Assembly (NCBI GenBank): GCA_963818245.1 | Contig: CAWFSD010000012.1 | Coordinates: 106,994-170,993 of the forward strand | Length of the DNA: 64,000 nucleotides | Origin: an uncultured Planctomycetota bacterium | GTDB lineage: Bacteria > Planctomycetota > UBA11346 | Direction: 5' to 3' | Shown: positions 15,132-46,274 of the stretch, one piece after another | Numbering within the stretch: position 1 is the stretch's first letter | Layout of the letters: every line of letters starts with the position of its first letter | Notes under the pieces: model-generated | Databases searched by the model: none | Told to the model about the DNA's origin: nothing | What the model saw: only the letters and a program-made list of their open reading frames with translations | Position numbers and translations under genes: made by a program

Positions 15132-15150
15132 CCCAGGGCGTTGCCCTGGG
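15132..15150 (+). terminator. Short GC hairpin downstream of the aminopeptidase
   Basis: cccagggc-gtt-gccctggg forms a perfect 8-bp stem with a 3-nt loop, 18 nt after the stop at 15114. No U-tract follows. Confidence 0.35.
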
Positions 15151-15309
15151 CTGGCGTAGGGCGCGCCGCTGGCGCTCTTGAGGCCGGCTCCGGGACGGCC
15201 GCTGCTTCATTTGTGACACCTGACTCTGGGAACGCGGTTCCGGGACATCTCCCCCTTCCCTTGTCCCCCTCCCCAACCGCCTACACTCCCCGCTCACCGC
15301 GGAGACTCC

Positions 15310-17940: not shown

Positions 17941-18294
17941 CGAGGGGGCTGAGGGCTGACCGCTGACGGACATGCCGGCGCCTCGCGCCGGCATCACTCG
18001 TACCGAGCAGGGTGTTGAAAAATGGCGACCAAGCATCGTCGGCCCCTCCGGCCTGGATGGCGAGGCGGACGGAGCGAAGGAAATGCCGGGCATTTTCGAG
18101 CTTCGTCCAACGACGCCAGACAGGTCGGAGGGGCCGGCGAGGCGCCGATCGAGCTTTTTCAACACCATGCTAGGCTCCCGGTTCACGTCCTGGATCGCCG
18201 GCCCGCATCGCAGCACCTCCGTCAGCTGCCAGCCGTCAGCCGTCCTTCCTTCCCGGAGCGACCCATCAGCCATCAGCCATCAGTCATCAGCCGC
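17941..18294. repeat. Long nested palindrome (GCTGACGG / ATCAGCC words) between dnaN and the cca-like gene
   Basis: The helices are concentric around position ~18090. Pairs are gctgacgg/ccgtcagc (about 17964/18221), ggtgttgaaaaa (18012-18023) with tttttcaacacc (18157-18168), and cggcccctccg (18042-18052) with cggaggggccg (18128-18138). The apical hairpin is aaatgcc-g-ggcattt (18083-18097). The right end carries (atcagcc) x4 at 18267-18294. Confidence 0.8.
17974..17996 (+). terminator. Perfect 10-bp hairpin after dnaN
   Basis: atgccggcgc-ctc-gcgccggcat lies 38 nt after the dnaN stop. No U-tract follows. It is embedded in the left arm of the 17941-18294 palindrome. Confidence 0.35.
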
Positions 18295-24189: not shown

Positions 24190-24191
24190 TC

Positions 24192-24422
24192 CACGGACTC
24201 CCGCGCGTCCGACGGGCTTCGCCGCAGAGGCGCAGAGAGGACGGCCCGAGGGCCGCAGAGCAGAGAGCGGAGGGACTGCGGCTGTGGGGGCGCAGGCGTG
24301 CTTGGCTGCGTTTTCGGCGGGCTCTGCGGACATGCGCCCCTGAGCGGCTGTCCTCTGCGGCCCTCCTGCCTGCCCTCTGCGCCTCTGCGGCGATGACCCT
24401 CGGACGCGTGCGGGTGCGTTGG
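24192..24422. repeat. Word-palindrome element (GCAGAGG words), copy A
   Basis: The left arm cacggactcccgcgcgtccgacgggcttcgccgcagaggcgcagagagg... mirrors the right arm ...cctctgcgcctctgcggcgatgaccctcggacgcgtgcgggtgcgttgg. Confidence 0.8.
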
Positions 24423-24487
24423 AGCAGGACGCGATCAGCCGCCGTTGTTGGCCTGCTTGATGATGCGGACCATCTGGTCGATTGATT

Positions 24488-24719
24488 CACGGACTCCCGC
24501 GCGTCCGACGGGCTTCGCCGCAGAGGCGCAGAGAGGACGGCCTGAGGGCCGCAGAGCAGAGAGCGGAGGGACTGCGGCTGTGGGGGCGCAGGCGCGCTTG
24601 GCTGCGATTTTCGGCGGGCTCTGCGGACATGCGCCCCTGAGCGGCTGTCCTCTGCGGCCCTCCTGCCTGCCCTCTGCGCCTCTGCGGCGATGACCCTCGG
24701 ACGCGTGCGGGTGCGTTGG
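24488..24719. repeat. Word-palindrome element (GCAGAGG words), copy B
   Basis: This is the same element as 24192-24422, shifted by 296-297 nt inside the tandem duplication. Confidence 0.8.
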
Positions 24720-24731
24720 AGCAGGACGCGA

Positions 24732-25617
24732 TCAGCCGCCGTTGTTGGCCTGCTTGATGATGCGGTCCATGATCGCGACCACGCGCTGGAAGTGGTCCTT
24801 GCTGTCGAAGTGCAGGGTCATGGCGCCCTTGCCGCCCTTCTCCTTCACGCTCACGCGCGTGCCGAAGAGGTGGAAGAGGTTGGTCTCGAGCTCGCGCAGG
24901 TGCGGCGGCTTGCTGCCAGGGGCGGCCACCGCCCCGTCGCTGGGAACGGGGGCCCCCTCCTTGGCCAGGCGCTCGGTCTCGCGCACCGAGAGCTCCTCGT
25001 CGCGGATGCGCCGGGCCACGGTGAGCTGCCAGGCGCGGTCGGCCATCCCGGCCAGGACCTTGGCGTGACCCAGGCTCAGGGCCTGGCTGCGCACCAGGAC
25101 GCGCAGCTCTTCGGGCAGGGCGAGCAGGCGCAGCGCATTGCTGATGCTGCTGCGCTCCTTGTTGAGGCGTTCGGCGAGCGCCTCGTGGGTCAGCCCATGC
25201 TGCTCGATGAGCGCCTGATAGGCCTCGGCCAACTCGATGGCGTTGAGGTTCTCGCGCTGGATGTTCTCGATCAGGCGCAGCTCGGCCTGGTGCTGGGCGT
25301 CGTTCTCCTCGCGCACCACGACCGGGACCTTGGCCAGGCCGGCCTTCTTCGCCGCGCGCAGCCGGCGTTCGCCCGAGAGCACCTCGTAGCCGACGTCGCG
25401 TTTGAGCACCACGATGGGCTGCAACATGCCGTGCTGCATGCAGACTCGCGGCCAACTCCGCGAGGGCGGGTTCGTCGAAATCCTGACGCGGGTTGGCGCG
25501 CGGAGGGGCGATCAGGCCGATATCGACCTCCAAATATCCCTTGGGAGGGTCGCGCCGCACGGTCTTCGCGAACACATCGCTCAAACTACGACCTAAACTA
25601 TTGTCATTTAAGGACAT
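24732..25617 (-). pseudogene. parB: Chromosome partitioning protein ParB, with one frame break near 25440
   Basis: ORF 24732..25439 carries 'LSGERRLRAAKKAG', 'IENIQRENLN' and the HTH 'LTHEALAERLNKERSSISNALRLL'. The N-terminal ~60 codons ('MSLNDNS...IAPPRANPRQDFDEPALAELAASL') lie in ORF 24487..25680. The break is at 'ctgcatgcagcac'. Confidence 0.88.
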
Positions 25618-26341
25618 ATAACAATTCCTTGGCGGCGGCGAGGTAGGCCAGGCCACCAGGACTAAGGGGATCGTAATCAAGGATGGTCTGGCCGTGGCTC
25701 GGTGCCGCCGCCAAGGCGATGTCGCGAGGGATGGCAGCGGCGAAGGCCTTTGGTCCGAAATGGTGTCGGACCTGCTCGGCGACTTGGCGGGCGAGGGGGT
25801 GGCGGGCTTCGTACATGGTCAATCAGGATCCCCAAGACCGCGACATCGGAATTCACATCCTGCCGCAAATCCTCGATGAAGGCAAGCAGCTGCGAAAGTC
25901 CTTCCATGGCGAAATATTCGCTCTGAAGCGGGATCAGCGAGATGATCGGCGGCCAAAAAAGCATTCATCGGTAAGAAAGACAGGTTTGGGGGACAATCGA
26001 TGAAGATCAGGTCGAAGTCCTTACGCAGGGGGGCCAACGCATATTTCAAGGCGAAGCGGCCCCCTTCAGTGCGCGCAAGAGCCTTTTCCTGCTCGAGGAG
26101 GTCCTCTCCCGCCGAAATGGCCCACAAGTTCGTCTTGGACCGTCTGATGAGGAAGCTGTCCGCTGTACACTGAAGGTCCCGAAACACGCCCAAGGAGGAC
26201 GCTCGTAGCATTTCCTTGAGGATCATTATCGATAACCAAGGTCCGCTTGCCACTCAAAGCGCAGAAAGCGGCCAAATTGACCACTGAGGTCGTCTTCCCG
26301 ACGCCTCCCTTCTGATTCGAAACGGCAAGGATATGGGCCAT
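25604..26341 (-). pseudogene. parA: Chromosome partitioning ATPase ParA/Soj, with three frame breaks
   Basis: The fragments are '[18 protein letters not shown]' (from 26341), 'DLIFIDCPPNLSFL', 'IPLQSEYFAMEGLSQLL' and 'IPRDIALAAAPSHGQTILDYDP'. They sit in ORFs 26066..26410, 25819..26253, 25677..25964 and 25604..25822. Breaks lie near 26160, 25945 and 25820, each equivalent to a +1 insertion. Confidence 0.85.
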
Positions 26342-26359
26342 GCATGATCCAGAGGGCTT

Positions 26360-26375
26360 GGTTCCACGTGGAACA
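26360..26375. promoter_or_regulatory. parS centromere site 1
   Basis: GGTTCCACGTGGAACA contains a 14-bp perfect palindrome. It closely matches the canonical parS sequence TGTTCCACGTGAAACA and lies 19 nt upstream of the parA start. Confidence 0.8.
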
Positions 26376-26390
26376 CAGCCCTTGAGGGGC

Positions 26391-26406
26391 TGTTCCACGT
26401 GGAACA
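26391..26406. promoter_or_regulatory. parS centromere site 2
   Basis: TGTTCCACGTGGAACA is a 16-bp perfect palindrome, one mismatch from canonical parS. It abuts the hom stop codon. Confidence 0.8.
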
Positions 26407-27723
26407 TCACAGACGTCGGAGGGTCACCGTGGGATGAAGGGTCAAACCACTATCATCGATATGCTTGATCGCCTTGAGAAAATGGCCACCGCGGAGCGGG
26501 TGAGTGGTGATTTCGATGCAGGCGCGGCCTTGGGCGTCAGCGGCACCTTGGTGAATGCTCAGCACACTGACCCCCTGCTGGCTCAGACCGTTGGTGATGC
26601 CAGCCAGAATGCCAGCCCGATCGGGTACCGCAAACCGCGCATAGCTGCTGGTCACTTCCTCATCTTCAGGCAAAAAGGTCAACGGTTCAGCATTCGTGAA
26701 AAAACGGAATCGGCGGGCTGTTGCTTGATACCGGCCCGTGCACACATCCACGACATCCGCCATGACTGCGCTGGCTGTTGGGAGCGCGCCAGCCCCCTGG
26801 CCGACCAAGAGGGTCGGACCAGCGGCGGAGCCGACTATATAAATCCCGTTGTAATTACGACTTACGGAAGAAAGGGGGTGCTCGATCGGGACCAGCGTGG
26901 GGGCCACCAGCAGTTCGAGGCCTTCCGGACGCCGCTTGGCGACCGCCAGGAGCTTGATACGAGCTCCCATGGTCTTAGCAGATGTGATGTCCTGAAACGT
27001 GATATTTTGAATGCCCTCAATGCGAACGTTCTCTATCGGTATGCGCGTATGGAATGCGATGCGTGCGAGGATCGCAAGCTTATGGGCGGTATCGGTGCCA
27101 TCGACATCGAGAGTGGGATCGGCCTCCGCATACCCGAGACGCTGGGCCTCGGCCAGGGCCTCGGTATAGCTACGGCCCTCCTCCTCCATCTTGGTGAGGA
27201 TGAAGTTGCAGGTGCCGTTGAGGATGGCGGAGATCGCCTCGATGCGATTGGCGACCAGGCCATCGCGCAGGGCGGCGATGACGGGGATCCCACCGGCGAC
27301 CGCCGCCTCGAAGGCGATGCTGACGTCATGGGCGGCGGCGGCGGCGAAGAGCTCGTCGCCATGGACCGCGAGCATGGCCTTGTTGGCGGTGACCACGTGC
27401 TTGCCGGCAGCCATGCAGGCCAGGGCGATGTCGCGCGCGACCGTGGTGCCTCCGACCAGGTGGATGACGGTGCGGATCTCGCGGTCGCCGAGGATGGCGT
27501 CGAGGCGATCGGTGACGGTGGCGCCGGCCGGCGTGCGGCCGCGCGGTCGCGAGGGGGTGCGCGTGACGATGGTGCGCAGGTGCAGGTCGAGACCGCAGCG
27601 CGCGCGGAACAGCTCGGGGTCGCGCTCGAGGATCTCGACCACCCCACCGCCCACCGTGCCCCAACCCACCAGTCCGAGCGGACAGCGCTCCATGTCGGAA
27701 TCTCCTTGCCGTTGCGTCGGCAT
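26407..27723 (-). CDS. hom: Homoserine dehydrogenase
   Basis: ORF 26407..27723 has the NAD-binding motif '[11 protein letters not shown]', the catalytic-domain motif '[22 protein letters not shown]' and a C-terminal ACT domain. The start could be the internal 'MERCPLG' at 27693. The 3' ~700 nt are visibly AT-richer than the 5' part. Confidence 0.9.
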
Positions 27724-27772
27724 GGTGGCCCCACGGGGGCGGGCGCAAGGCGGCGCTGCGCGTCAGAGGGGC

Positions 27773-27972
27773 AAGACCCTAGACCCTAGGCCCTGGACCC
27801 TCGGTCGTTACGCGGGGTGAAACGCGAGTCCCGGGGTCGTCCAGTGACTCCAACGAAAACAAGGATTCTTGTAAGTCCACGCGAACAGCGTGGAAAACAG
27901 GTCTAGGGTCTAGGGTCTAGGGTCTAGGGTCTAGGGTCTAGGGTCTAGGGTCTAGGGTCTAGGCCCAGGGTC
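27773..27972. repeat. Word-palindrome element (TAGGGTC words)
   Basis: The left arm (27775-27802) has four GACCCTA-type units. An AT-richer core of about 100 nt follows. The right arm has eight perfect TAGGGTC units plus two degenerate ones (27904-27972). Confidence 0.85.
27904..27959. repeat. Perfect 7-mer tandem array (TAGGGTC) x 8
   Basis: Read directly: units start at 27904, 27911, 27918, 27925, 27932, 27939, 27946 and 27953. Confidence 0.95.
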
Positions 27973-27989
27973 TGCGCCACAGGCGCCCG

Positions 27990-28736
27990 CTACATCCCCT
28001 GTTCGAGCCGCTCCGCCAGGAACCGGCTCAAGCCGGCGCTGATGATCTTGTCCTGGGTGCGCTGGAAGTCGTAGCGCAGGCGGTGGAAGGTCAGACGGTC
28101 GCCGTCGAGGGTGGCGAAGCTCGCGCGGTTGTCGCGGTCGCGCGGCTGGCCGACCGAACCGACGCAGACGTAGGCCTTGTGGCCCTTGGGGATGCGGAAG
28201 GTGCGGTGGCCGTCGTGGGGCACCATGATGCCGAGCGTGGTGGCCAGGAAGGGGGTGTGGTTGTGCCCCGCGAAGCAGATGTCGAAGCCGGAGAAGTCGC
28301 GGCTGAGGGTCTCGATCATCTGCTGCGATTCGACGGGATTCTCCGGCTCATCGACGTAGTCGTGCACGGGGTCGTAGATCGAGCCGTGGACCAGCAGCAG
28401 GTTGCCCTTGAGCACGAAGGGGGTGCGCTCCTTGAACCACGGCATCGCGGCGTCGGGGCCCGCGGTGTCGGCCAGCTCGATGCGCGTCCAGTCGATGGCG
28501 CGGGCGGCGAGGGGGTTGAAGCGGTGCTTGCCGGTGACCAGGGCCTCCTCGTGGTTGCCCATCAGGGAGACGTTGAAGTGCTTCTGCGCGATGCGCGTCA
28601 CCGCCAGGGGGTCCGGGCCGTAGCCGATGACGTCGCCCAGGCACAGGAACTGCTTCACGCCGAGCTTGAGGCAGTGGTCCATCACCGCCTCGACCGCCTC
28701 GAGGTTGGAGTGGAGGTCCGAGACGATGGCGATCAT
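27990..28736 (-). CDS. Calcineurin-like metallophosphoesterase
   Basis: This is the tail of ORF 27990..30692, with ATG at 28736. Motifs are 'DLHSN', 'GDVIGYGPDP', 'GNHE' and 'GHNH'. It overlaps the maf stop by 4 nt. Confidence 0.8.
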   Translation of the reverse strand: MIAIVSDLHSNLEAVEAVMDHCLKLGVKQFLCLGDVIGYGPDPLAVTRIAQKHFNVSLMGNHEEALVTGKHRFNPLAARAIDWTRIELADTAGPDAAMPWFKERTPFVLKGNLLLVHGSIYDPVHDYVDEPENPVESQQMIETLSRDFSGFDICFAGHNHTPFLATTLGIMVPHDGHRTFRIPKGHKAYVCVGSVGQPRDRDNRASFATLDGDRLTFHRLRYDFQRTQDKIISAGLSRFLAERLEQGM

Positions 28737-35700: not shown

Positions 35701-36041
35701 AGAACACCTACAGCGAGGGCAGCGCCGGCACCCACAACGTCATCCGCTACTGCGAGAGCTGGAACGGGAACAACTGGAACTTCACCGGCAGCCTGGTGGT
35801 GCTCAACCGCATGCGCTACAGCCGCGCCTACAGCTCGGGCGTGCCGGCCGCGGGCCCGTGCCCGATCTCGCTGAACAACGGCAATTACGGAACCAACAAC
35901 TCGGGTGGATACTACGGCGCGCCGAGCCGCAATTACACGTTCAACAGCGACCTGCTCACCTCGATGGGCCAGCCGCCGGCCTCGCTCTCGGGGATCTCGG
36001 TGCAGCGCGTGGTCAGCACGATGAACCTGGTCAACCACTGA
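32711..36041 (+). pseudogene. Large (~1100 aa) PilX-N-like pilus/pseudopilus-associated protein, with about 12 frame breaks between 33449 and 35215
   Basis: The N-terminus 'RAGNALLMTIIVLAGVAAMMTLSSQRV...AAEAGASMVEGGL' resembles the PilX N-terminal domain. Coding sense can be followed continuously only by hopping frames near 33449, 33617, 33645, 33730, 33783, 33997, 34100, 34230, 34290, 34640, 35145 and 35215. The last 830 nt (ORF 35004..36041) are intact. Confidence 0.6.
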
Positions 36042-36056
36042 ACCAGGTCCGCCTGG

Positions 36057-36091
36057 GGGCGCCCGCCGGCGCAACGCGTCGGCGGGCGCCC
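36057..36091 (+). terminator. GC-rich hairpin after the pilus-like operon
   Basis: gggcgcccgccg-(11 nt)-cggcgggcgccc forms a perfect 12-bp stem, 16 nt after the stop at 36041. Confidence 0.45.
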
Positions 36092-36196
36092 GGTGGGGTG
36101 GCGGCGGACTCCCGCCATCCCGCCCATTTCCTTTTGCCCGCAGGCGCTAGCGTGCCGACCTTCGCAGGCCGGTAGATCCCGGCCGGGGAGCAGCGC

Positions 36197-37522
36197 ATGG
36201 CCGGCAGCAGGGGTCCGTCACCGTCCAAGGTCGCCAAGTTCGGCGGCACCTCCGTCGCGACCGCCGCGCAGCTGCGCAAGGTCCAGGCCATCATCGACGC
36301 GGACCCGGCGCGGCGCTTCATCGTGCCGTCGGCGCCCGGCAAGGCCGACAGCAAGGACACCAAGGTCACCGACCTGCTCTACCTGACCCAGCAGCTCGCC
36401 GCCCAGGGGCAGCCGCTCGGGACGGTGTGGGACGGGATCGCCCGGCGCTTCACCGGCATCGTCGCCGACCTCGGTCTCGACCTCGACCTGCGCCCGGTGC
36501 TGGACGAGGTCAAGGCGCGCATCGAGGGCGGCGCCAACGCGGACTACGCCGCCAGCCGCGGCGAGGCCATCCACGGGCGCGTGCTCGCGGCGCTGCTGGG
36601 CGCGGAGTACGTCGACGCGGCCGACGTGGTGCTGTTCGACCGCGCCGGGCGCCTCGACCCGCGCACCTACGAGCTGCTCGCCGCGCGCTGCGCCGGGCCG
36701 GGCCGCTACGTCATCCCGGGCTTCTACGGCCGCGATCCGCAGGGCGAGATCAAGACCTTCAGCCGCGGCGGCTCGGACGTCACCGGGGCGATCGTCGCCA
36801 ACGCGCTGGACGTCGCGCTCTACGAGAACTGGACCGACGTCTCGGGCGTGCTGATGACCGACCCGCGCGTGGTCGCCGAGGCCAAGCCGATCGTCGAGAT
36901 CACCTACCGCGAGCTGCGCGAGCTGTCCTACATGGGCGCCAGCGTGCTGCACGAGGAGGCGGTCTTCCCGGTGCGGGCGAAAGGCATCCCGATCAACATC
37001 CGCAACACCAACCTGCCCCAGGACCCCGGCACCATGATCGTCGCCGAGCGCGACGCCGGGCACCAGGTGGTGGTGGGCATCGCCGGCACCAAGGGCTTCA
37101 CCGTGGTGCACCTCGAGAAGGCGCTGATGAACGCCGAGGTCGGCTTCGGCCGGCGCGTGCTCGACGTCTTCGAGCGCCTGGGCATCAGCTACGAGCACAC
37201 CCCCACCGGCATCGACACCATGTCGGTGGTGGTCGCCGACAAGCAGCTCGGCCACCGCCTCGACGAGGTGCTCGAGGACCTGCAGGCGGCGCTCAAGCCG
37301 GACGCGCTCAAGGTCACCGCGAAGATGGCGCTGATCGCCACCGTCGGCCAGGGCATGAACCACGCGGTCGGCACCGCCGCGCGGCTGTTCTCGGCCCTGG
37401 CCAAGGCGCGCGTCAACGTGCGCATGATCGACCAGGGCTCGAGCGAGCAGAACATCATCGTCGGCGTCGAGGAGGCCGACCTGGCCACGGCGATCCGCGC
37501 GGTCTACAACGAGTTCGCCTGA
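36197..37522 (+). CDS. Aspartate kinase
   Basis: ORF 36197..37522 has 'KFGGTSV', 'SRGGSDVTGA' and C-terminal ACT domains ('VGQGMNHAVGTAARLFSALAKARVNVRMIDQGSSEQNI'). Confidence 0.9.
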   Translation: MAGSRGPSPSKVAKFGGTSVATAAQLRKVQAIIDADPARRFIVPSAPGKADSKDTKVTDLLYLTQQLAAQGQPLGTVWDGIARRFTGIVADLGLDLDLRPVLDEVKARIEGGANADYAASRGEAIHGRVLAALLGAEYVDAADVVLFDRAGRLDPRTYELLAARCAGPGRYVIPGFYGRDPQGEIKTFSRGGSDVTGAIVANALDVALYENWTDVSGVLMTDPRVVAEAKPIVEITYRELRELSYMGASVLHEEAVFPVRAKGIPINIRNTNLPQDPGTMIVAERDAGHQVVVGIAGTKGFTVVHLEKALMNAEVGFGRRVLDVFERLGISYEHTPTGIDTMSVVVADKQLGHRLDEVLEDLQAALKPDALKVTAKMALIATVGQGMNHAVGTAARLFSALAKARVNVRMIDQGSSEQNIIVGVEEADLATAIRAVYNEFA

Positions 37523-37543
37523 GATCGAGGTGGCCGGTCAGCC

Positions 37544-37747
37544 GAAGAGGACAGGAGGCGCCGAGACGCGGAGATCGGAGGAGGGGACCAGCCGGCTTCG
37601 CCTGCCCCGTCCTCGCGCGGGCACGGACGGTGGCGCTCCGCCAGCAGCAGCGAGGACACGTCCGTGAACGCCGAAGCGGAGGCGACCCGTTGCCCAACGC
37701 GAGGCCGCCCTCCTCTTCCCTGCGCGCCTCCTGTCCCATCCCTCCCC
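37544..37747. repeat. Word-palindrome element (GGAGG/CAGGAGG words)
   Basis: ggacaggaggcgc (37549-37561) pairs with gcgcctcctgtcc (37724-37736), a perfect 13 bp. The inner pair is cacggacg (37622-37629) with cgtccgtg (37659-37666). The element lies between convergent genes. Confidence 0.75.
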
Positions 37748-37755
37748 GCGCATCC

Positions 37756-39062
37756 TCACCCGCGCAGGTGCTCGCTGAGCAGGCGGATGTACGGGGCGTG
37801 GTCGGCGCTGGCGGCGCACTCGCGGGCGCTGTGCATGGACAGCATCGGGTTGCCGACGTCGACCACGGCCAGGCCGAGGCGCGCGGCGGTGGCGGGGCCG
37901 ATGGTCGAGCCGCAGCCGAGGTCGCTGCGCACCACGAAGTCCTGCAGGGTCACGCCCGCGCGCTTCGCGGTGGCGCGCAGGGCGGCGGCCGATTCCGCGG
38001 TGGTGGCGTAGCGCACGTTGGCGTTGCTCTTCAGCACCGGGCCGCCGCCCAGGCGCGGCTTGTGGCGCGGCTCGTGGCGGTCGGCGTAGTTGGGGTGCGA
38101 CGGCGTGGGCCATGTCGGCGCTGAGCAGGGTGCTGCCGGCGAGCGCGGCGAGGAAGGCCGCGCGGCCCAGCCCGCGCTCCAGGGCGATGCGCTCCAGCAC
38201 CGCGCCGAGCAGCGGGCCGTCGGCGCCGGTGTCGCTGCCAGAGCCGACCTCCTCGTGGTCGAAGCAGGCCAGCACCGGCACCGTCGCCGCGTCGCCGTCC
38301 GCCGCGGCGAGCAGCGCGGCCAGGCCGGCGTGGCAGGAGGCGAGGTTGTCGAGGCGGGGCGCGAAGATGAGCTCGTCCGCCGCGCCGCCGAGGGTGCTGG
38401 CGGTGAGGTCGTAGAGCGCGAGGTCGTGCGCGACGACCTCGCCGGCGGGGACGCCGGCGCTGCGCAGCAGCGCGGTGAACGCGGCCTCGGCCTCCTCCTT
38501 CCCGGCTCTGCCGTCCTTGCCGCCCTGGTCATCGCCGGCCAGCCCCCACAGCGGTGCGAGGTGGAGCTGCGGGTTGAGCTTCAGGCCGTCCTCGCCGATC
38601 TTGCGGTCGAGGTGGATGGCGAGCTGCGCGACGCGCGCCAGCGGGCGGTGCAGGCGCACCAGGTGGCGCGCGCCGTCGGCGGTGTGCACGGTACCGGCCA
38701 GGCCCAGGTCGCGGTCGAGCCAGCTGTTGAGCAGCGCCCCGCCGTAGACCTCGACGCCGAACTGGCGGCAGCCCTCGCAGTGGTACGCGGCGCGCGGCTT
38801 CAGGCGCAGGTGCGGCGAGTCGGTGTGCGCGCCGATCAGGCGGAAGCGCTGCGGCGCCGCGGCCCCGCGCAGGATGAAGGCGATGACCGTGGCGCCGCGC
38901 CGCACCAGGAAGCGGCCGGGAGCGAGGTGCCACTCCGGGGCGCGCGCATCGAGCTCGTGGAAGCCGGCGGCCAGCAGGCGGTCGGCCAGGGCCTGCGCCG
39001 CGTGCGCGGGACTGGGCGCGGCGTCGATGAAGGTGCAGAGGTCGCGGGCGGCGTGGTCCATG
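37756..39062 (-). pseudogene. M18-family (aspartyl) aminopeptidase, with one frame break near 38095
   Basis: ATG at 39062. Motifs are 'GAHTDSPHLRLKP', 'FDHEEVGS' and 'SADMAH' (in the ORF 37538..41143 frame). The text then continues in ORF 37756..38532 ('HPNYADRHEP...GCGSTIGP...VDVGNPMLSMHS'). Confidence 0.85.
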
Positions 39063-39189
39063 CGCCCATGGTGCAGGGGGAGGGGAAGTCGGGTCAGCTG
39101 GAAGAGTGGGCCGAGGCGCGCGAGTCGCGAGTTGCGGAGCTCGAGAGCTCGCAACCGGGCGCAGCCCGCAGGCCAGGACGTTCCCGCGG

Positions 39190-41110
39190 TCACCTCTGGA
39201 AGCGCCGCTCCAGCTCTGGCCAGGGAAGGTCCAGCGTGGTCGGCCGGCCGTGCGGGCAGTGCTCCATGTGCTCGAGGCGGTAGAGCAGGGAGACCAGTTC
39301 GAGCTGCTCGGCGGTGGAGAGCTCCTGGCCGGCCTTGACGGCGCCGTGGCAGGAGAGGCCGTGGGCGATGCGCTCGCGCAGTCGCGCCACGGCGTCGGCG
39401 GAGGAGCCGCCCTCGGCGAGGGTGGCGAGGAAGGCGGACCAGTTGAGGCGGCGCAGCGCGGCGGGGTGGGCGCGCACCAGCACGGAGGTGGGGCCGAAGA
39501 CCTCGGCGACGATGCCGAAGGGCGCGAGCTGGGGCAGCAGGCCCTCGAGCGCGGCGACCTCGTGGGCGAGCAGCTCGACGGTGCGCGGGATGAGCAGCTC
39601 CTGCCGGCCTCCGGCGGTCAGGTCGGTGGCGGCCGGGATCGAGGCACAGGAACAGCGCCTTCTCGTGCAGCGCGTGCTGGTCGACCAGGCGGATGCCGCG
39701 GTCGGTCTCGATCAGCAGGTACATGCGGTTGAGCTGGACGACGCGGCGCACGCCGGGGAGGTGGGTGGAGGACGCGGTCGCTGCGCCGGAAGGCGAGCTG
39801 CGGGCTGCGGGCTGCGGGTCGCGGGTCGCGAGCGGGGCTGAGGAGCTCGCAGCGGCGGCCGCTGGGGCGTCGGAGCGCGCCGCGGACTCGTACCCGGTGC
39901 CGGTGTCGGCGACCCGCGTGCCAGGCTCGGGCGTTTCCTGCGTCCGCGCCTGCCAGGGCGCGCTCGGCGCCGGCGTCTGCGGCAGGAAGCGCTCCTGGTA
40001 GGCGGGCGGCGCCGCGGGCTCCGGCGCCGGGCGCACCACCGTGCGCGCGACGATGCCGACCGCGCCCGCGCCGCCGCCGAGCAGGCTGAAGCCGCCGGCG
40101 CCGGCGCCGAGCGCCTGCTGCAGCGCGTTGCGGACCAGGGTGAAGACCTCGCCCTCGCGGCGGAAGCGCACCTCGGACTTGGTCGGGTGGACGTTGACGT
40201 CGACCAGTCCGGGGTCGAGGTCGAGGTGCAGGAACACCGCGCCGTGCAGGCGCGGCTCGAGGAAGCCCTTGAAGCCCTCGCGCACCGCGGCGAGCAGCAG
40301 CTTGTCGCGCACGAAGCGGCCGTTGAGGAAGACGTACTGGCGCTTGGCGGTCGGGCGCGCCTCCTGCGGGTGGGCGATGAAGCCGGCGAGCTGCATGGTG
40401 TCGGCGTGCGCCGCCACCGGCAGCAGGCGCTCGGCGAACTGGCGGCCGAAGAGCGCGCGCACGCGCAGGTCAAGCGTCTCGCCCGCGGGCTGGTCGATGA
40501 CCGTGCGCGCGCCGGACTCGCCGGCGGTCTCGAGGCGGAACGCGACGCGCGGGTGGCTGAGCGCGAGGCGCATCACCTGGTCGGTGACGTGGCCGGCCTC
40601 GGCGGCCTCGGTCTTGAGGAACTTGAGCCGCGCCGGCACGTTCCAGAACAGGTTGCGCACGCTGACGCGCGTGCCGCAGGCCATCGCGCAGGGCTCCAGC
40701 GCCACGCGCGCGCCGCCCTCCAGGCGCAGGCGCCAGCCCTGCTCCTGGTCGGCCGGGCGGCTGGCCAGGGCGAACTCGCTGACCGCGGCGATCGAGGGCA
40801 GCGCCTCGCCGCGGAAGCCGAGGGTGGCGATGCGGAAGAGGTCGTCGGCGCTGGTGAGCTTGCTGGTGGCGTGCCGCGCCAGGGCCAGGGGCAGGTCGTC
40901 GCGGCGCATGCCGTGGCCATCGTCCTCGACCTCGACCAGGCGCCGCCCGCCGTCCTCGAGGCGCACCACGATGCGCGTCGCGCCGGCGTCGAGGCTGTTC
41001 TCGGCGAGCTCCTTCACCGCGGCGGCGGGGCGCTCCAGGACCTCGCCGGCGGCGATCTGGTTGGCGACGGCCTCGGGCAGCTGGCGGATCGGCGGCGGCA
41101 GGGGGGGCAT
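39190..41110 (-). pseudogene. mutL: DNA mismatch repair protein MutL, with one frame break near 39645
   Basis: ATG at 41110. Motifs are 'VANQIAAGEV', 'VKELAENSLDAGAT', 'DDGHGM' and 'LGFRGEALPSIA'. The C-terminal endonuclease region ('CHGAVKAGQ', 'CPHGRPT') lies in ORF 39190..39483, reached through a shifted 'IPAATDLTAGGRQELLIPRTVEL' segment. Confidence 0.9.
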
Positions 41111-41173
41111 GGGCGCACCATACGAGCGCGCCGCCGCGGCCAACCGGCGCCTGGGTCGGCCCGGAAATCAGCT

Positions 41174-41329
41174 GGATAGAACCGCCAAGACGCCAGGACG
41201 CCAAGGTCCAGTCAAGAGGGCCGCGCCTGCTTTCCTCTCCGAATGCTCCCAGTGCGGCACGCCCATCCCCGGCACTCGCACCACCGTGTCGGCAGACCTG
41301 GGCGCCTTGGCGTCTTGGCGGTTCTATCC
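41174..41329. repeat. Word-palindrome element (CCAAG words), the best-preserved copy
   Basis: ggatagaaccgccaagacgcca (41174-41195) is the exact reverse complement of tggcgtcttggcggttctatcc (41308-41329). The two are 112 nt apart. Confidence 0.9.
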
Positions 41330-41351
41330 GTCGCGCATCCCGTAGCCGGAA

Positions 41352-42173
41352 TCAGCCCGCGCTGGGCAGCCAGGCGAAGCGCTCGCCGTCGCGGGCCGCG
41401 GCGGGCGCGCTGGGCTGCGGCTCGGGCGGGGCGCTGCCCTGGGGCTCGTGGCGCTTGGGCGCCGGGCCCAGGCGGCGGCTGCCGCGGCAGCGCGTCAGGC
41501 TGACGGCCACGGCGCGGAAGAAGCGCAGGGTGTCGTACAGCGGGTGGACGCCCGAGACCTTGTCGTTGTAGATGACCGTGATCGGCACCTCGCGGATGCG
41601 CCAGCCGGCGCGCGCGGCGAGCACGCACATCTCGGTCTCGAGGTCGTAGCGGCGCCCGGCCAGGGGCAGGCTCAGGATCAGGCGCGGGTCGCAGACCCGG
41701 TAGCCGCTCTGGCTGTCGACCACGCGCCGGCCGGCGGCGAGGGTGACCAGAATGCTGCTCAGGCGGTTGAAGCCGCGCCGGTGCAGGGGCTGGCGGCCCA
41801 GGTCCAGGATGCGCTTGCCGATCACCAGGTCGGCGCCGCCGCGCGCGGCGGCGATCAGCTGCGGGGCTTCGCGCGGGTCGTGCTGGCCGTCGCCGTCGAG
41901 CAGCAGCACGCGCTGGTAGCCCTCCTGCACGGCCCAGCGGCAGCCGGCGATGATCGCCGTGCCCTTGCCGCCGTTGGCGCGGCGCAGCACCTGGGCGCCG
42001 GCGCGGCGCGCGGCCTGGGCGGTGTGGTCGCGGCTGCCGTCGTCGACCACCAGCACCGGCAGGCCCTGCTCGACCAGCGCGGCGACCACCGGGGCGATGC
42101 GCGTGGCCTCGTTGTAGGCGGGCACCACCGCGAGCAGGTCGCAGCGGCCGGAAGCGGGTGGCCGGCTGGGCAT
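41352..42173 (-). CDS. Family 2 glycosyltransferase
   Basis: ATG at 42173 lies inside ORF 41352..43388. Motifs are 'AVVPAYNEA', 'VVDDGSRD' and 'DGDGQHDP'. Confidence 0.8.
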   Translation of the reverse strand: MPSRPPASGRCDLLAVVPAYNEATRIAPVVAALVEQGLPVLVVDDGSRDHTAQAARRAGAQVLRRANGGKGTAIIAGCRWAVQEGYQRVLLLDGDGQHDPREAPQLIAAARGGADLVIGKRILDLGRQPLHRRGFNRLSSILVTLAAGRRVVDSQSGYRVCDPRLILSLPLAGRRYDLETEMCVLAARAGWRIREVPITVIYNDKVSGVHPLYDTLRFFRAVAVSLTRCRGSRRLGPAPKRHEPQGSAPPEPQPSAPAAARDGERFAWLPSAG

Positions 42174-42253
42174 CACCGCGAGGTTAGGCCGGCCACCCTG
42201 GTTGCCAGCAGGCTTTTCCGTCAGCCCAATTCGCGATTGCATGGCCGTGCAGC

Positions 42254-43561
42254 TCATTCTGGTAGCGGCCGGCCCTTGGTTTCGGGGCAGAACCAGATCA
42301 CCACCAAGCCGACGATGTAGATCAGGGAGACGGTCGCGCACATTTCCGCGAAGCTGCCGTGGAAGACGTCCTTCACCAGGCCGTTCATGACCAACACGCC
42401 CACCGCGGTGAGGATGCGTCCGGAGTTGAAGGCGAAGCCCTGGGCCGCGGCGCGCAGGCGGGTGGGGAAGAGCTCGGGCAGGTAGAGCGGCAGCCAACCG
42501 TAGAAGCTGGCGGTGACCGCGCCGACCACGAACACCCAGCCCAGGAACGCGCCGTCGTAGACCTGGTGGGTGCGGAACAGCCAGGCGCAGGCGCCGAGCG
42601 AGAGCAGGCACATCAGGGCGTAGGTCAGGCGGCGGTTGAGGGCCTGGGCGAGCACGGCAGCGATGAGCGCGCCGACCACCGACCCCGAGCCGGACCAGAT
42701 CTGGGTCCACTGGCGGGCGGTCTCGGACTTGCCGTCGAGGCTGTCGGCGACGATCGGCAGGATCTGCACCGAGCCCCAGGTGCCGAGCAGCGCCACGGTC
42801 GCCAGGGCGGCGGCGAGCAGGGTGCGTCGGCGCAGGGAGGCGGAGAACACCTCGCTGAAGCGCGCCGCCGGCGCCGTGCTGGCGGCGTGCTCCCAGGCCT
42901 TGGACTCGGGCACGAAGATGGTGAGCAGGAAGGTCAGCAGGGCCGGGGCCGCGCCCAGCATCATCAGCAAGCGCCAACCGCCATTGGCGGTCAGGGTACT
43001 GACCGCCTCGTTGCCCAGGCCCATCTCGCTCAGGCCGGCGCCGAGGTCCTTCACGTACAGGCCGGCGACGGCGATGGCCACCAGGCCGATGTTCAGCGCC
43101 GCGCCGATCACGCCGGCGAGCAGCGGCCGCCAGCGCGCCGGCCACACCTCCATGACCAGGGCGACGCCCAAGGCCCACTCGCCACCCATGCCCAGGGCGG
43201 AGCAGAAGCGCAGGCCGGCGAGGGTGTAGGGGTCGTGGGCGAAGCCGCACATCCCGGAGAACACCGAGTAGGTGAGGATCGTCCACGAGAGCGCCCGCAC
43301 CCGTCCGAAGCGGTCGCCAAGCCAGCCGAACACCGCGCCACCGCAGGCGGCGCCGAGCAGGAAGGCGGCGACGATGATGCCGTTCCACAGCGGGCGCTGG
43401 GTCGCGTCCGTGACCAGCTCGGTGAGCGCCGGCTTGCTGACGAGCGGGAACAGGCCCATCTCGACACCATCGAACATCCAGCCCAGGAAGGCGGCGAAGA
43501 GGGCCATCCAGGCGCCCTTGGGCAGGCCTCGGGCGGGAATGGCGGGCGTGGGGCTGGTCAT
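42254..43561 (-). CDS. MFS transporter
   Basis: ATG at 43561 lies inside ORF 42254..43657. There are about 12 hydrophobic segments and the MFS loop motif 'GWLGDRFGR'. Confidence 0.85.
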   Translation of the reverse strand: MTSPTPAIPARGLPKGAWMALFAAFLGWMFDGVEMGLFPLVSKPALTELVTDATQRPLWNGIIVAAFLLGAACGGAVFGWLGDRFGRVRALSWTILTYSVFSGMCGFAHDPYTLAGLRFCSALGMGGEWALGVALVMEVWPARWRPLLAGVIGAALNIGLVAIAVAGLYVKDLGAGLSEMGLGNEAVSTLTANGGWRLLMMLGAAPALLTFLLTIFVPESKAWEHAASTAPAARFSEVFSASLRRRTLLAAALATVALLGTWGSVQILPIVADSLDGKSETARQWTQIWSGSGSVVGALIAAVLAQALNRRLTYALMCLLSLGACAWLFRTHQVYDGAFLGWVFVVGAVTASFYGWLPLYLPELFPTRLRAAAQGFAFNSGRILTAVGVLVMNGLVKDVFHGSFAEMCATVSLIYIVGLVVIWFCPETKGRPLPE

Positions 43562-43952
43562 GCGCGGTCCTCGATGATGGCGGGGGCCCAGTAGCGCCGC
43601 GCCGGGCGCGAGCGCCAGCGTGGAGTTCCGCCGGCGCGGCGCGCGCGACTCACTCAAGTCCTGTCGGGAGGATCGTTTTCAGCAAAAAGCCGCCCGCTCT
43701 GGCCGAGCCGGCGCGAATCGGCGTGGGGATTGGCGGTTCCAGCCGGCAACCGCCGCGCCGACACTCGGTACTCCCTCGCCAGCGCCAACCGAAGGTTCCG
43801 GAGCCCCCGACCGATGCGCCCACACGTCCGCTCCGCCCGTGCCCGGTCCGCCACACCAGTGCGCTCGACCCGCGCGGTCGGGACCGCATCATCACCGCCA
43901 CGCCCGCCGAGGAGATCCCCGTGACCCGCCCTGCCCCAGTGGCCACCTGACC

Positions 43953-45032
43953 ATGGCCGACGCCCCCGCCCTTCCGCCCGTCGGCTTCGCCATCATCGGC
44001 ACCGGCATGATCGCCGCCCACCACGCGCGCGCCATCCGCGCGGTCCCGGACGCGCTGCTGGTCGGCGTGCACTCGCGCGACGCCGCCAAGCGCGCGGCCT
44101 TCGCCAGCGAGCGCGGCATCGCCGCCTTCGCCACGCTGGCCGAGCTGCTCGCCGACCCGCGCGTGCAGGTGGTGGTGGTGGCGACGCCCTCGGGCAACCA
44201 CGCCGAGCACGCCATGGCCGCCGCGGCCGCCGGCAGGCACGTGCTGTGCGAGAAGCCGCTCGACATCACCGTGCCGCGCGCGGCCGCGATCGTCGCGGCC
44301 TGCGCGCACCACGGCGTGATCCTGCTGCCGGTGTTCCAGAACCGCTTCGGCCCGGCGGTGCTGGCGATCCGCGAGGCGCTCGCCGCCGGCCGCCTCGGGC
44401 GCGTGCTGACCGGCCGCGCGACCATGCCGTGGAAGCGCACCATGGACTACTACCGCAGCGGTGCGTGGCGCGGCACCTGGGCGCTGGACGGCGGCGGCTG
44501 CCTGATGAACCAGGCCATCCACACCATCGACCTGCTGGTGCACTTCCTCGGCCAGCCGCTCGAGGTCTTCGGCTACACCGCCACCCTCACCCACCCCGGC
44601 GTCGAGGTCGAGGACACCGCCTGCGCGGTGCTGCGCTTCGCCAGCGGCGCGATGGGCGTGATCGAGGCCAGCACCAGCTGCGACCCCGAGCTGCCGGTGA
44701 CGGTCGCGGTCACCGGCTCGGCCGGCGCCGTGGCGGTGCGCGGCGAGCGCCTCGCCCAGTGGGAGTTCGCGTCCCCCACCGCCGCCGACACCGTGCTGCG
44801 CGCCGAGCTGGTGGTGCCGCGCCCCGACCCCGAGGACGTCGAGGCGCGCTTCCCCAAGCACCGCGCCCAGGTCGAGGACCTGGTCCGCGCCATCCGCAGC
44901 GGCGGCCAACCCTCGATCAGACCCCAGGAGGGCGTGCTCGCCATCGAGGTCATCACCGGGATCTACGAGTCGGCGCGCACCGGGAAGCCGTACCGTTTCG
45001 CTGGAACGACGGCGGCCCCCGCATCGGTCTAG
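43953..45032 (+). CDS. Gfo/Idh/MocA-family oxidoreductase
   Basis: ATG at 43953. The Rossmann motif is 'GFAIIGTGMIAAHH' and the family motif is 'LCEKPL'. Confidence 0.85.
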   Translation: MADAPALPPVGFAIIGTGMIAAHHARAIRAVPDALLVGVHSRDAAKRAAFASERGIAAFATLAELLADPRVQVVVVATPSGNHAEHAMAAAAAGRHVLCEKPLDITVPRAAAIVAACAHHGVILLPVFQNRFGPAVLAIREALAAGRLGRVLTGRATMPWKRTMDYYRSGAWRGTWALDGGGCLMNQAIHTIDLLVHFLGQPLEVFGYTATLTHPGVEVEDTACAVLRFASGAMGVIEASTSCDPELPVTVAVTGSAGAVAVRGERLAQWEFASPTAADTVLRAELVVPRPDPEDVEARFPKHRAQVEDLVRAIRSGGQPSIRPQEGVLAIEVITGIYESARTGKPYRFAGTTAAPASV

Positions 45033-45091
45033 GATCGCCACATCGGTCCAGGGTGCCCCCCACATCGGTCCAGGGTCGCCCCGCGACGGTC

Positions 45092-45223
45092 GGGTTTCAC
45101 CGCCAGGGCGCCATGACGCCAGGGAAGGATCTGGGCGTGGCTGTCCGCGCCTGGCGCGGCGGCGGCCCACTCCGATTCCGCCTTCTTCCTGCCTCCCCTG
45201 GCGCCTTGGCGGTTCAAAACCGG
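45092..45223. repeat. Word-palindrome element (CCAGGG/CCAAGG words)
   Basis: cgggtttcaccgccagggcgccatgacgccagggaagg mirrors ccttcttcctgcctcccctggcgccttggcggttcaaaaccgg. It is preceded by a 22-nt tandem direct repeat, ccacatcggtccagggt.. x2 (45038-45082). Confidence 0.75.
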
Positions 45224-45248
45224 AGTCGCGGAATGGAGGCGCAGGCGG

Positions 45249-46274
45249 TCAGTGCGCGGCGGCGGCGGCCTCGGCGGCGGGGGCCTTCGGCGTGAAGTGC
45301 GCCGCGTGGGTGAGCTGGCGCGCCACCACCATGAACAGCAACGCCAGGGCCAGGGTGCCGGTGATGTAGCCGTGGCGCTGGCCGGGGCCGCGCGTGGGCA
45401 CGCTGATCTCCTTCCACAGCCAGTGCAGCGCCGGCAGCGCGAACAGCACGCCCAGGCCGATGGCGAGGTGGTAGCGCAGGTCGTGCACGCCGGCACCGGC
45501 GACGTAGAGCAGGGGCCCGACGAGGACCTGCAGGGCGAGCGTGGCGAGCGCGACGCTGGCGAGCTGGGTCTTGATCTCGGTGCGGCTGAGCGCGCGGAAG
45601 CGGCCGGTGACGTCGAAGGCGCTGCGCCCGACCACGCGCATCAGGAACACCGCGCTGAGCGTCAGGCTGGCCAGCACCAGGTGCAGGAGGTGCGGCAGCA
45701 CGCCCGGCAGCAGCACCGCGTCGGCGAAGCGCATAGGCTGGCGACCGCCCTGCAGCGCGGAGTCGACCCCGGTCACGTAGATGAGCTGCACCGCCAGGAA
45801 CAGCACCGCGGCGGTGGCGATCATGGTCACGTGCAGGCCCTTGTGGCGGGCGAGCGCGTCCCAGCTCTGCTTGTGCAGCCAGGTCACCGCGAAGGCGGCG
45901 GCGAGCGGCGGCAGCAGCAGCGGCCAGACGCTGCCGATCGGCGAATTGCCCTCGTAGAAGGGCGTCGGGTAGAGCGTGGTGCCGAGCATGATCTCGACCA
46001 CCCCGGTGAGCGCGGCGAGGTTCATCAGCGCGATCAGCGATCCGGCGACGTCGCGCGCCAGCACGTCGTAGTCGCGCACCGCCAGGCCGCGCAGCTGGTA
46101 GACCAGGGTGAACAGCACCCCGCCGACGGTCAACCCGGAGAAGACCAGGTGCAGGAAGGCACAGAGCGCGAGCGCGCCCCCGAGCAGCGGGTGGGCGGCG
46201 AGCACATCGCCGGCGGGCAGCGGCGCGGCGGAGGGGGTGGCGTCCATGGCCGCGAAGTGTGCGGCCTGATGCAT
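45249..46274 (-). CDS. Polytopic integral membrane protein of unknown function
   Basis: ORF 45249..46274 (341 aa) has about 8 hydrophobic segments and several conserved-looking His residues ('HLVF', 'HLLHLVL', 'HWLW'). I recognise no family. Confidence 0.55.
   Translation of the reverse strand: MHQAAHFAAMDATPSAAPLPAGDVLAAHPLLGGALALCAFLHLVFSGLTVGGVLFTLVYQLRGLAVRDYDVLARDVAGSLIALMNLAALTGVVEIMLGTTLYPTPFYEGNSPIGSVWPLLLPPLAAAFAVTWLHKQSWDALARHKGLHVTMIATAAVLFLAVQLIYVTGVDSALQGGRQPMRFADAVLLPGVLPHLLHLVLASLTLSAVFLMRVVGRSAFDVTGRFRALSRTEIKTQLASVALATLALQVLVGPLLYVAGAGVHDLRYHLAIGLGVLFALPALHWLWKEISVPTRGPGQRHGYITGTLALALLFMVVARQLTHAAHFTPKAPAAEAAAAAH

Follow-up and report, generated by a model that had tools for sequence, protein, structure and literature searches.

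Cyanobacteria reportedly carry short tandemly repeated repetitive (STRR) heptamers, described by Mazel et al. in 1990. In Xanthomonas, 70-75 convergent pairs of GGGAATC heptamer arrays have been reported (PMC4692102), and in Geobacter metallireducens looped pairs of five tandem heptanucleotides form the MTYCTGA 'class 3' sites (PMC2700814). A hairpin-bounded insert of another kind is the intervening sequence (IVS) in the 23S rRNA of Coxiella burnetii, which has a 28-bp terminal stem and a small open reading frame (ORF) in its loop, with S23p as cargo (PMC4990558). Here we analyse a 64,000-nt stretch of contig CAWFSD010000012.1 (assembly GCA_963818245.1, positions 106,994 to 170,993, forward strand) from an uncultured Planctomycetota bacterium, hereafter the window, in which a family of intergenic palindromes has arms built of tandem short words; the palindrome at 41174-41329 is the focal element. 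An initial annotation of these palindromes had held that no family with this grammar has been described, a statement that the heptamer arrays of Xanthomonas and G. metallireducens show to be too strong.

We propose that the window palindromes are probably gene-less members, comparable to MITEs (miniature inverted-repeat transposable elements), of a cross-phylum family of selfish cassettes that are bounded by hairpins and carry a GxxExxY gene. The focal element is laid out as follows.

41174-41329: palindrome of the CCAAGG type, with arms at 41174-41208 and 41295-41329 (35 nt, 91% complementary)
41174-41208: left arm, consisting of GGATAGAACC and the words CGCCAAGA, CGCCAGGA and CGCCAAGG
41209-41294: core, 86 nt
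41352, minus strand: stop codon of the neighbouring GT2 gene
41110, minus strand: start of the neighbouring mutL
Folding of the element: z = -7.5 (plus strand) and -6.3 (minus strand)

The window has a G+C content of 72%, carries dnaN, hisS, mutL, parB, hom and other housekeeping genes, and encodes proteins whose best homologues lie in genomes named Planctomycetota. Inverted arms are present in all 11 intervals of the initial annotation, and Tandem Repeats Finder detected short tandem words in 10 of them: the 8-mer CGCCAAGR at 5025, 5112, 13590, 41183, 41297 and 45101, the 9-mer CCGCAGAGG at 6444 and 6589, the 7-mer GGCGCGA (8 copies at 9834, 14 at 10027), CCATCAG (4 copies at 18263) and GGTCTAG (9 copies at 27900). 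The count of at least 11 intervals has to be lowered, however. The same program shows that 24178-24770 is a tandem duplication with a period of 297 bp and 98% identity, each copy containing a whole GCAGAGG palindrome; the elements at 24192 and 24488 are therefore copies of one duplication, and the 11 intervals represent 10 independent loci. Additionally, the member at 37544 is weak, and 6402-6435 is only an incomplete additional left end, upstream of the actual element at 6436-6624. Folding on both strands beats 100 dinucleotide shuffles, as had been expected (z = -3 to -10.7), with the minus strand of 37544-37747 (z = -1.8) as the exception. Inverted exact 12-mer pairs spaced 40-400 nt apart number 140 in the window, whereas block shuffles contain 16 on average and 25 at most, and the head GGATAGAACCGC, allowing up to two mismatches, has 11 matches in the window where 3.8 are expected, a number reached by none of 100 shuffles. 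The inverted 12-mers at 39960-40436 were rejected as an element, being GC-rich simple sequence inside mutL.

Gene context, read from codon-usage gene calls and Pfam hits, places all elements between genes, and all but the one at 9833 lie about 5-60 nt from a stop codon. The claim that every copy lies just 3' of a gene is borne out by these adjacent stop codons except at 9833, whose 3' neighbour has no secure gene call. Four loci (6402, 24192/24488, 37544 and 45092) sit between convergent genes, as had been noted, and the arms of all window elements face each other with their heads outward. Head and words occur together in the elements at 41174, 13581, 5018 and 45092 (CCAAGG) and at 6436 (GCAGAGG); those at 9833, 17941, 24192, 27773 and 37544 have words only.

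Searches of the window for known RNA features gave no Rfam match at gathering score and, at E <= 1, two matches of which neither falls on an element, and no tRNA or transfer-messenger RNA was found in it. No intrinsic terminator was found at the three elements within the scanned region 36000-46000, no T-run is visible in the flanks that were read, and the loops measure 65-160 nt. A likeness of GGTTCAATCC to a T-loop was dropped, because the flanks make no T-arm and the window variant GGTTCTATCC violates the loop consensus. Integron attC sites were rejected as well, since RYYYAAC and GTTRRRY are not matched by the ends GGATAGAAC and GTTCTATCC and the elements are singly dispersed among housekeeping genes. 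Further ideas were set aside on general background knowledge as coincidental or ill-fitting, namely coding potential of the arms (given their 8-nt period and stop codons), Shine-Dalgarno or CsrA-like GGA motifs (missing from some words), and a resemblance to GAAC and CAAG, the target tetranucleotides of IS91.

The family is not unique to the window, in keeping with the initial annotation. When one genome per species was scanned, the focal 22-mer was found in five genomes from four phyla, specifically Sorangium sp. So ce315 (twice), a Planctomycetota metagenome-assembled genome (MAG; three contigs), and Kiritimatiellia, Lentisphaerae and Burkholderiales MAGs; a slightly degenerate arm was matched by at least 120 metagenome stretches from contigs with 55-73% G+C, and the commoner arm form GGATTGAACC lies on one phage contig. 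The consensus of the CCAAGG arm, GGAT(A/T)GAACC followed by (GCCAAGRN)2-4, is nearly unchanged across taxa. Among 233 distinct arms, conservation starts sharply at GGATTGA, of which the window arm has the variant GGATAGAACC, and continues through ACC-GCCAAGR-CGCCAAGR into the third word, with no conservation outside. Over all loci, 85 pairs of arms are convergent, with their heads outward, against 4 divergent pairs. In 58 elements, with the boundaries shifted by up to +/-3, no target-site duplication of 2-9 bp rose above chance, and 59 distinct paired elements share no core homology, save for a locus sampled twice and one tandem array; the cores of the window elements had likewise been described as unrelated to one another, and they are. 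In the zone of the third word, the identity of an arm to its own partner is 0.68, compared with 0.46 to other partners (permutation p <= 0.0005), and the outer head shows no co-variation between partner arms.

These data speak against the view that the words are specific to single loci and that pairing alone is conserved. Unrelated genomes share arms of the CCAAGG, GCAGAGG and GCTGAYGG/CCATCAG types with unchanged sequence. The word types mark subfamilies, in each of which the sequence, too, is conserved.

The arms also occur in other arrangements. Arms are stacked with arms of other words at loci L005, L017, L024, L107 and L125; at L005:331-815, in a Kiritimatiellia MAG, the left arms of at least five word types are followed by their right arms, the stack lying between the two arms of a CCAAG pair spaced 449 nt apart, which looks like repeated nested insertion. 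Direct arrays of head-plus-word units of about 32-40 nt, for example ATTGAACCGCCAGGACGCCAGGAGAAGCA in more than 10 copies, lie at L013:190-700, L115:12225-12560, L029 and L022, and at L115 an opposing array stands on the far side of a GxxExxY remnant. The arrays at L013 and L115 are not CRISPR arrays, being plain tandem head-plus-word repeats with near-identical 'spacers'. In IMG/VR, solo CCAAG or GCAGAGG arms, with other words beside them, were seen at L144:1036, L144:5970, L145:1264, L147:5851 and L148:6304; they lie between co-directional phage genes, in sense orientation in five of five cases, shortly upstream of the next ORF. An apparent insertion polymorphism between L131 and L132 proved to be a scaffold gap of Ns.

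The gene that accompanies the arms was identified from both directions. When ORFs of up to 400 aa next to arms were clustered at about 120 loci, the sole recurrent family, present at five loci (L010, L013, L033, L041 and L060), was GxxExxY (TIGR04256, E about 1e-39 to 1e-42; Pfam PF13366, a PD-(D/E)XK nuclease family), and no transposase family was recurrent among these ORFs. At L010, the unit reads, from the upstream stop codon, GGATTGAACCGCCAAGACGCCAAGGACGCCAAGAACGG, 60 nt, the GxxExxY ORF, 10 nt and CCGTTCTTGGCGTCCTTGGCGCCTTGGCGGTTCATCC. Starting instead from the protein, four homologues were selected solely for lying on long contigs, and all of them carry AACCGCCAAG...CGCCAAG on their 5' side and CTTGGCG...CTTGGCGGTT on their 3' side, and all four genes are squeezed between housekeeping genes. 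Clear read-through of the arm into the protein (NRQGRQ, NRQDAK or LGALGVLGG) is seen in 17 of 20 longer homologues. Additionally, three cores that lack the gene hold fragments of GxxExxY according to a protein profile: L012 (E 3e-6), L115 (1e-5) and L069 (3.5e-4). Among 67 arm pairs spaced up to 900 nt apart, three enclose the gene, three enclose remnants and the rest neither; the remnants in short cores show that some of the gene-less copies, at least, arose by decay of filled ones.

Two observations on neighbouring cargo were made at individual loci. L041:1-1400 holds five tandem gene-less elements of about 190 nt with a common core that is 94-99% identical, and one unit of the series has the GxxExxY gene in place of that core. 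Solo arms adjoin small accessory genes, encoding a MazE-type antitoxin (L022), a DUF6932 protein (L109) and a HicB-like antitoxin (L111), and such genes may represent cargo other than GxxExxY.

The GxxExxY protein is about 130 aa long. Across 40 homologues, D82, E92, K94 and Y110 are invariant and Q106 is nearly so, a D...ExK...QxxxY set of residues that we take to be typical of RecB/Cas4-like nucleases. A confident AlphaFold model (predicted local distance difference test, pLDDT, 87) resembles PDB folds only weakly, those matched being lambda-exonuclease and nucleases of the Cas4 type (TM-score 0.39-0.47, best E 1.7e-3), and a PDB sequence search with GxxExxY gave no match. The family is very large: 34,184 clusters at 50% identity match its profile at E <= 1e-3, among 1.84 billion cluster representatives, and 14,399 clusters do so at E <= 1e-10.

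The word of the arm goes together with the lineage of the nuclease. Members of the P0001 clade (at least 63% identity) have CCAAG arms wherever flanks or read-through are readable, and diverse other members of the family read through into other arm words.

Read-through RRDAEGAEG or TETQRAQR: arm word GCAGAGG
Read-through NHRDTEDTE: arm word CACAGAG
Read-through NHEGHEG: arm word CACGAAGG
Read-through RKDRKERR: arm word CGCAAAG

At the DNA level, L150 has its GxxExxY gene between inverted GCAGAGG-type arms, TCACCGCCGAGACGCAGAGGGCGCAGAGG and CTCTGCGGGGTCTTTGCGTCCTCGGCGTCTTTGCGGTGAG, whose word is that of the window elements at 6436 and 24192/24488. After the head AACC[G/A]C, further words were found (CACGAAGGA, CACAAAGGA, CGCAGATGG, CGCGAAGG and CGCAGAGAA). 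The GCTGAYGG/CCATCAG word of 17941-18294 recurs in a (CCATCAG)x14 palindrome between convergent genes at a Planctomycetota MAG locus (L008), and the words GGCGCGA and TAGGGTC were not found in 867 kb of fetched loci.

The gene order MFS, GT2, mutL, M18 peptidase is kept in relatives, which allows the spacer that holds the focal element to be compared.

Window: GT2-mutL spacer of 241 nt, focal element present
L140 (GT2 93% identical): spacer of 216 nt, orthologous focal copy
L141 (GT2 79% identical): spacer of 9 nt, focal element absent
L142 (GT2 78% identical): spacer of 69 nt, focal element absent
L143 (GT2 76% identical): spacer of 58 nt, focal element absent

Between the window and L140, the focal arms are identical at 33 of 35 and about 24 of 25 positions (about 94-96%), whereas the core is about 69% and the arm-side spacer about 45% identical; the right arm of L140 has one 8-mer word fewer. 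A longer stretch of the relative that gave L141, L149, is syntenic to the window as far as parA-parB. Its spacer between the M18 and aspartate kinase genes measures 4 nt, where the window has 233 nt that include element 37544, and its metallophosphoesterase-hom spacer is 121 nt and free of hairpins, against 296 nt with element 27773. The comparison of orthologous spacers that had been suggested earlier accordingly reveals presence or absence for three elements, and a change of word number in the right arm of L140. In L149 (55% GC), the spacers at 183-374 and 1206-1442 hold other tandem words, GGCTGCTTTGGTCGGTC repeats and, by a scaffold gap, GCTGCGCTTTGCGCAATAAGCG repeats.

The four roles suggested at the outset were bidirectional terminators, stabilisers of mRNA, mobile DNA and arrays bound by protein. 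A MITE-like role, or one like that of repetitive extragenic palindromic (REP) sequences, fits best, because the elements are absent at orthologous sites, the arms occur in many phyla and complete copies have a nuclease gene; canonical intrinsic terminators drop out for want of a T-run in the scanned region and the flanks read. In the model that we propose, the basic unit would be a directional arm made of a short head (here GGAT[A/T]GAACC) and 2-10 tandem purine-rich words of 7-9 nt, and two arms would face each other with their heads outward. Complete copies would enclose a GxxExxY PD-(D/E)XK nuclease with its catalytic residues kept, and most copies, including all those of the window, would have lost the gene or never had it, leaving a short locus-specific core. 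Each word type would stand for one lineage of cassettes, which moves together with a nuclease lineage of its own. As to the mechanism of mobility, we infer that the nuclease drives the spread, either in a homing-like manner, by cutting an arm-bearing or hairpin target that is then repaired from a filled copy via the conserved arms, or by excising and inserting the hairpin unit. Spread of the whole unit of arms plus cargo and homing of the nuclease gene into cognate palindromes would fit equally well. Copies would survive just past stop codons since a self-pairing insert can be tolerated there, as with the 23S rRNA intervening sequences, and the number of words would drift by slippage. More tentatively, GxxExxY proteins in general could be the nucleases of an unrecognised class of bacterial and phage mobile elements, in which the arms serve as recognition site and homology arms, spread into spacers leaves no target-site duplication, and decay leaves gene-less palindromes; we regard this wider idea as possible, with somewhat more doubt than belief.

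Several findings weigh against the cassette proposal. Within the 64-kb window there is neither a GxxExxY gene nor a detectable remnant of one, and for the words GGCGCGA, TAGGGTC, CAGGAGG and GCTGACGG a link to the gene was not found; the elements with these words are putative members of the family, assigned by shared grammar only. The association of gene and arms could instead be read as insertion of the gene into pre-existing hairpins. A simple two-ended transposon does not predict arms that occur solo or in direct tandem arrays (L013, L115), nor does a two-armed cassette explain the solo arms upstream of phage ORFs (L144-L148). On the side of the protein, no fold match reached E <= 0.001. 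Finally, the analysis recovered neither a transposition or homing event nor an exact junction between empty and filled sites nor a target motif; those relatives whose sites are empty are too diverged for this.

The palindromes might instead be RNA structures that benefit the host, as bidirectional terminators, REP-like 3' stabilisers or RNase III sites, with only an incidental link to GxxExxY. This would suit their position, intergenic throughout and nearly always right past a stop codon, with four loci between convergent genes, as well as their very strong folding, the complementarity of arms within an element beyond what the family consensus requires, and the conservation of arms above core between orthologous copies; RNase III, moreover, cuts a comparable terminal stem in the Coxiella 23S intervening sequence (PMC4990558). 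We nevertheless consider it unlikely. No T-run follows the hairpins in the scanned 36000-46000 region and the flanks read, and among five elements with co-directional neighbours and strands that differ in energy the sense strand folds better in only one. The orthologous sites of three elements are empty, with spacers down to 4 and 9 nt, so that the flanking genes manage without the elements, and pure structure leaves the identity of a 30-nt sequence across phyla unexplained. A role in host transcripts is not needed, given that relatives do without the elements, that no T-run was seen in the parts covered and that folding does not favour the sense strand; a secondary, exapted effect on transcripts is possible. 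We hold just as doubtful a scenario in which the hairpins are primary and GxxExxY is a homing nuclease gene that inserts centrally into palindromes with the cognate word, the window copies being unoccupied targets that spread in some other way. The strict correlation between nuclease clade and arm word (CCAAG for the P0001 clade, other words for other clades), the excess of gene-less over filled copies of about 10:1, the stacked or nested arms with different words, as in L005, and the absence of target-site duplications all agree with it. It is silent, however, on how empty palindromes reach new loci and phyla with identical arms, and the GxxExxY remnants in short cores mean that some gene-less copies decayed from filled ones.

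Two further explanations appear far less probable. One would make the elements REP sequences, or REP doublets that form hairpins (REPINs), moved by a REP-associated tyrosine transposase (RAYT; an IS200-like Y1 transposase), or else MITEs of an ordinary insertion sequence (IS) family located elsewhere in the genome. The elements are indeed numerous short palindromes of intergenic DNA, their head is conserved, and they occur as head-out pairs, solo and in clusters, as do REPs and bacterial interspersed mosaic elements (BIMEs). We think it very improbable, given that the arm is a direct tandem array and not an imperfect palindrome, a GTAG-type head and target-site duplications are absent, the cores are unrelated, unlike those of MITE or REPIN copies, and GxxExxY, not a transposase family, is the only recurrent gene on the arm side (ORFs of up to 400 aa, about 120 loci). 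The other would have the palindromes arise as neutral by-products of replication, slippage making the words and intramolecular template switching mirroring them, independently at each locus. Word numbers that are unequal between arms and between orthologous copies (one 8-mer fewer in the right arm of L140), the 297-bp tandem duplication at 24178-24770 and the raised complementarity of an arm to its own partner are what such processes would leave. Yet they cannot yield one identical 30-nt stretch of head plus words across separate phyla, an orientation fixed as head-out (85 versus 4) or an association with one protein family, and as a full account we give this explanation hardly any weight. Neutral slippage and template switching may still explain the drift in word number, and the word types seen only in the window, GGCGCGA and TAGGGTC, possibly have a neutral origin. 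Taken together, we prefer the proposal that the window palindromes are gene-less members of GxxExxY cassettes.

The remaining palindromes of the window are the following, with folding z given for the plus and then the minus strand where two values stand.

13581-13702: CCAAGG type, GGATAGGACCGCCAAGGCGCCAAGACGCCA ... TGGCGTCTTGGCGGTTCCACC; 3' of an AraC-family gene (12589-13536, plus strand); z = -5.3, -3.9
5018-5140: CCAAGG type with degenerate head, TTTTTACCGCCAAGGCGCCAAGG ... CTTGTCGACTTGGCGGTTAAA, 21-nt arms, 86% complementary; 3' of an FKBP gene (5169-5669, minus strand); z about -3
45092-45223: CCAAGG/CCAGGG type with degenerate head, GGGTTTCACCGCCAGGGCGCCATGACGCCAGGG ... CCCCTGGCGCCTTGGCGGTTCAAAACC; between convergent genes 43953-45032 (plus) and 45249-46274 (minus); z = -4.8, -3.0
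6436-6624: GCAGAGG type with the same head as the CCAAGG copies, GGATAGAACCGCAGAGGCCGCAGAGG ... CTCTGCGCTCTCTGCGCTCTTAGCGCTTCTATCC; between convergent cytochrome c (plus) and hisS (minus) genes; z = -4.7, -6.4
24192-24422: GCAGAGG type with an additional outer stem (ACGGACTCCCGCGCGTCCGACGGG...), 68-nt arms, 82% complementary; between a DNA methylase gene (plus) and parB (minus); z = -8.8, -9.7
24488-24719: GCAGAGG type, second duplicate, a copy of the 24192 element at the same locus
9833-10117: GGCGCGA words, left side with about 8 7-mers, right side with about 14 degenerate CGCCTCG, arms of about 50 nt, 88% complementary; upstream of an inositol monophosphatase gene (8966-9802, minus strand); z = -8.6, -7.1
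17941-18294: GCTGACGG/CCATCAG words; directly 3' of dnaN; z = -8.4
27773-27972: TAGGGTC words, AGACCCT x4 on the left and GGTCTAG x9 on the right; between hom (26407-27693, minus) and a metallophosphoesterase gene (27990-28736, minus); z = -10.7, -8.6
37544-37747: weakest member, purine-rich left arm GGACAGGAGGCGCCGAGACGCGGAGATCGGAGGAGG and an imperfect complement, exact arm of only 13 nt, no tandem word detected by Tandem Repeats Finder; between convergent aspartate kinase (plus) and M18 peptidase (minus) genes; z = -3.7, -1.8

Within 17941-18294, a second palindrome, GGTGTTGAAAAA...TTTTTCAACACC, is nested at 18005-18170 with inner arms at 18033-18062 and 18114-18143, and it may come from another repeat family than its GCTGACGG-word host. 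The G+C content falls to 0.62-0.67 at 24000-28000 (parB, presumed parA and hom), against 0.72 elsewhere; the gene order of this stretch is nevertheless kept in the relative L149. At 37538-41110 (minus strand), mutL and the M18 aminopeptidase gene form one ORF of 1190 aa with no stop between them, and the C-terminal part of the peptidase seems to be continued in a different frame, ending at 37756; either two genes share a frame here or the frame is in error. A sub-threshold match to the Rfam family RF01687, Acido-Lenti-1 RNA, lies at 15132-15176 (plus strand; 32.5 bits, where the gathering score is 37; E 0.0015 for the whole window), as two hairpins 18 nt past the stop codon of an M24 peptidase gene.

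Under the cassette proposal, GxxExxY/PF13366, a very large family of proteins of no known function, gains a definite role that can be tested. The proposal also accounts for intergenic palindromes that probably break metagenome assemblies, many members being on contigs of about 1 kb, and it lets the inverted heptamer arrays reported here and there be seen as a single architecture. If the nuclease truly mobilises the arms, the cassettes would constitute a new kind of small mobile element with very short, well-defined ends common to phyla and phages, which would matter for genome evolution and possibly as a tool; their decay would leave abundant gene-less palindromes in Planctomycetota and in genomes assigned to other phyla. 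A literature search with the arm sequences matched only PCR primers, and nowhere in the literature searched is the arm described, nor its occurrence across phyla or its association with GxxExxY, the mentions of GxxExxY found there not being about repeats.

Eukaryotic Foldback transposons, such as FB of Drosophila, have long inverted arms of tandem short repeats with variable arm length, a centre that is heterogeneous or absent, target-site duplications and a different transposase; nothing points to a common descent with the family in the window. REPs, BIMEs and REPINs are likewise abundant intergenic palindromes just 3' of genes, present singly, as inverted pairs and in clusters, with a conserved head and variable spacers. 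A REP unit, however, is itself a hairpin with a GT[A/G]G-type head, whereas the arm described here is a direct array with the head GGATTGAACC that pairs only with its partner; RAYT is a Y1 HUH transposase and not a PD-(D/E)XK nuclease; and REP families are specific to lineages, whereas the CCAAGG arm is shared across phyla. As with MITEs and their autonomous IS elements, short noncoding inverted-repeat copies far outnumber gene-bearing ones with the same ends, are present or absent between relatives and form subfamilies that differ in their ends. The differences are that no target-site duplication accompanies our elements, that the cores of the short copies are unrelated and not deletion derivatives of one IS, that GxxExxY belongs to no known transposase family, and that the arms also occur solo and in direct arrays.

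The arrays of Xanthomonas and Geobacter resemble the window elements as intergenic tandem 7-mers that face a complementary array and vary in length between related genomes. Each of them, in contrast, has one word in one genus and was read as G-quadruplexes or regulator sites, and a conserved head, an arm shared across phyla or an associated gene is not described in those reports. The 23S rRNA intervening sequence is likewise a small selfish insert with terminal inverted repeats, with ORF-less versions in other bacteria and a sporadic distribution that suggests horizontal transfer. It is tolerated since its stem lets host RNase III process the insert out, whereas the stems in the window are predicted folds, long and perfect or nearly so. 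The intervening sequence sits in rRNA helices and has the four-helix S23p as cargo; the elements described here lie in the spacers of mRNA genes, their complete copies carry the PD-(D/E)XK protein GxxExxY, and their arms consist of tandem short words and a conserved head shared across phyla.

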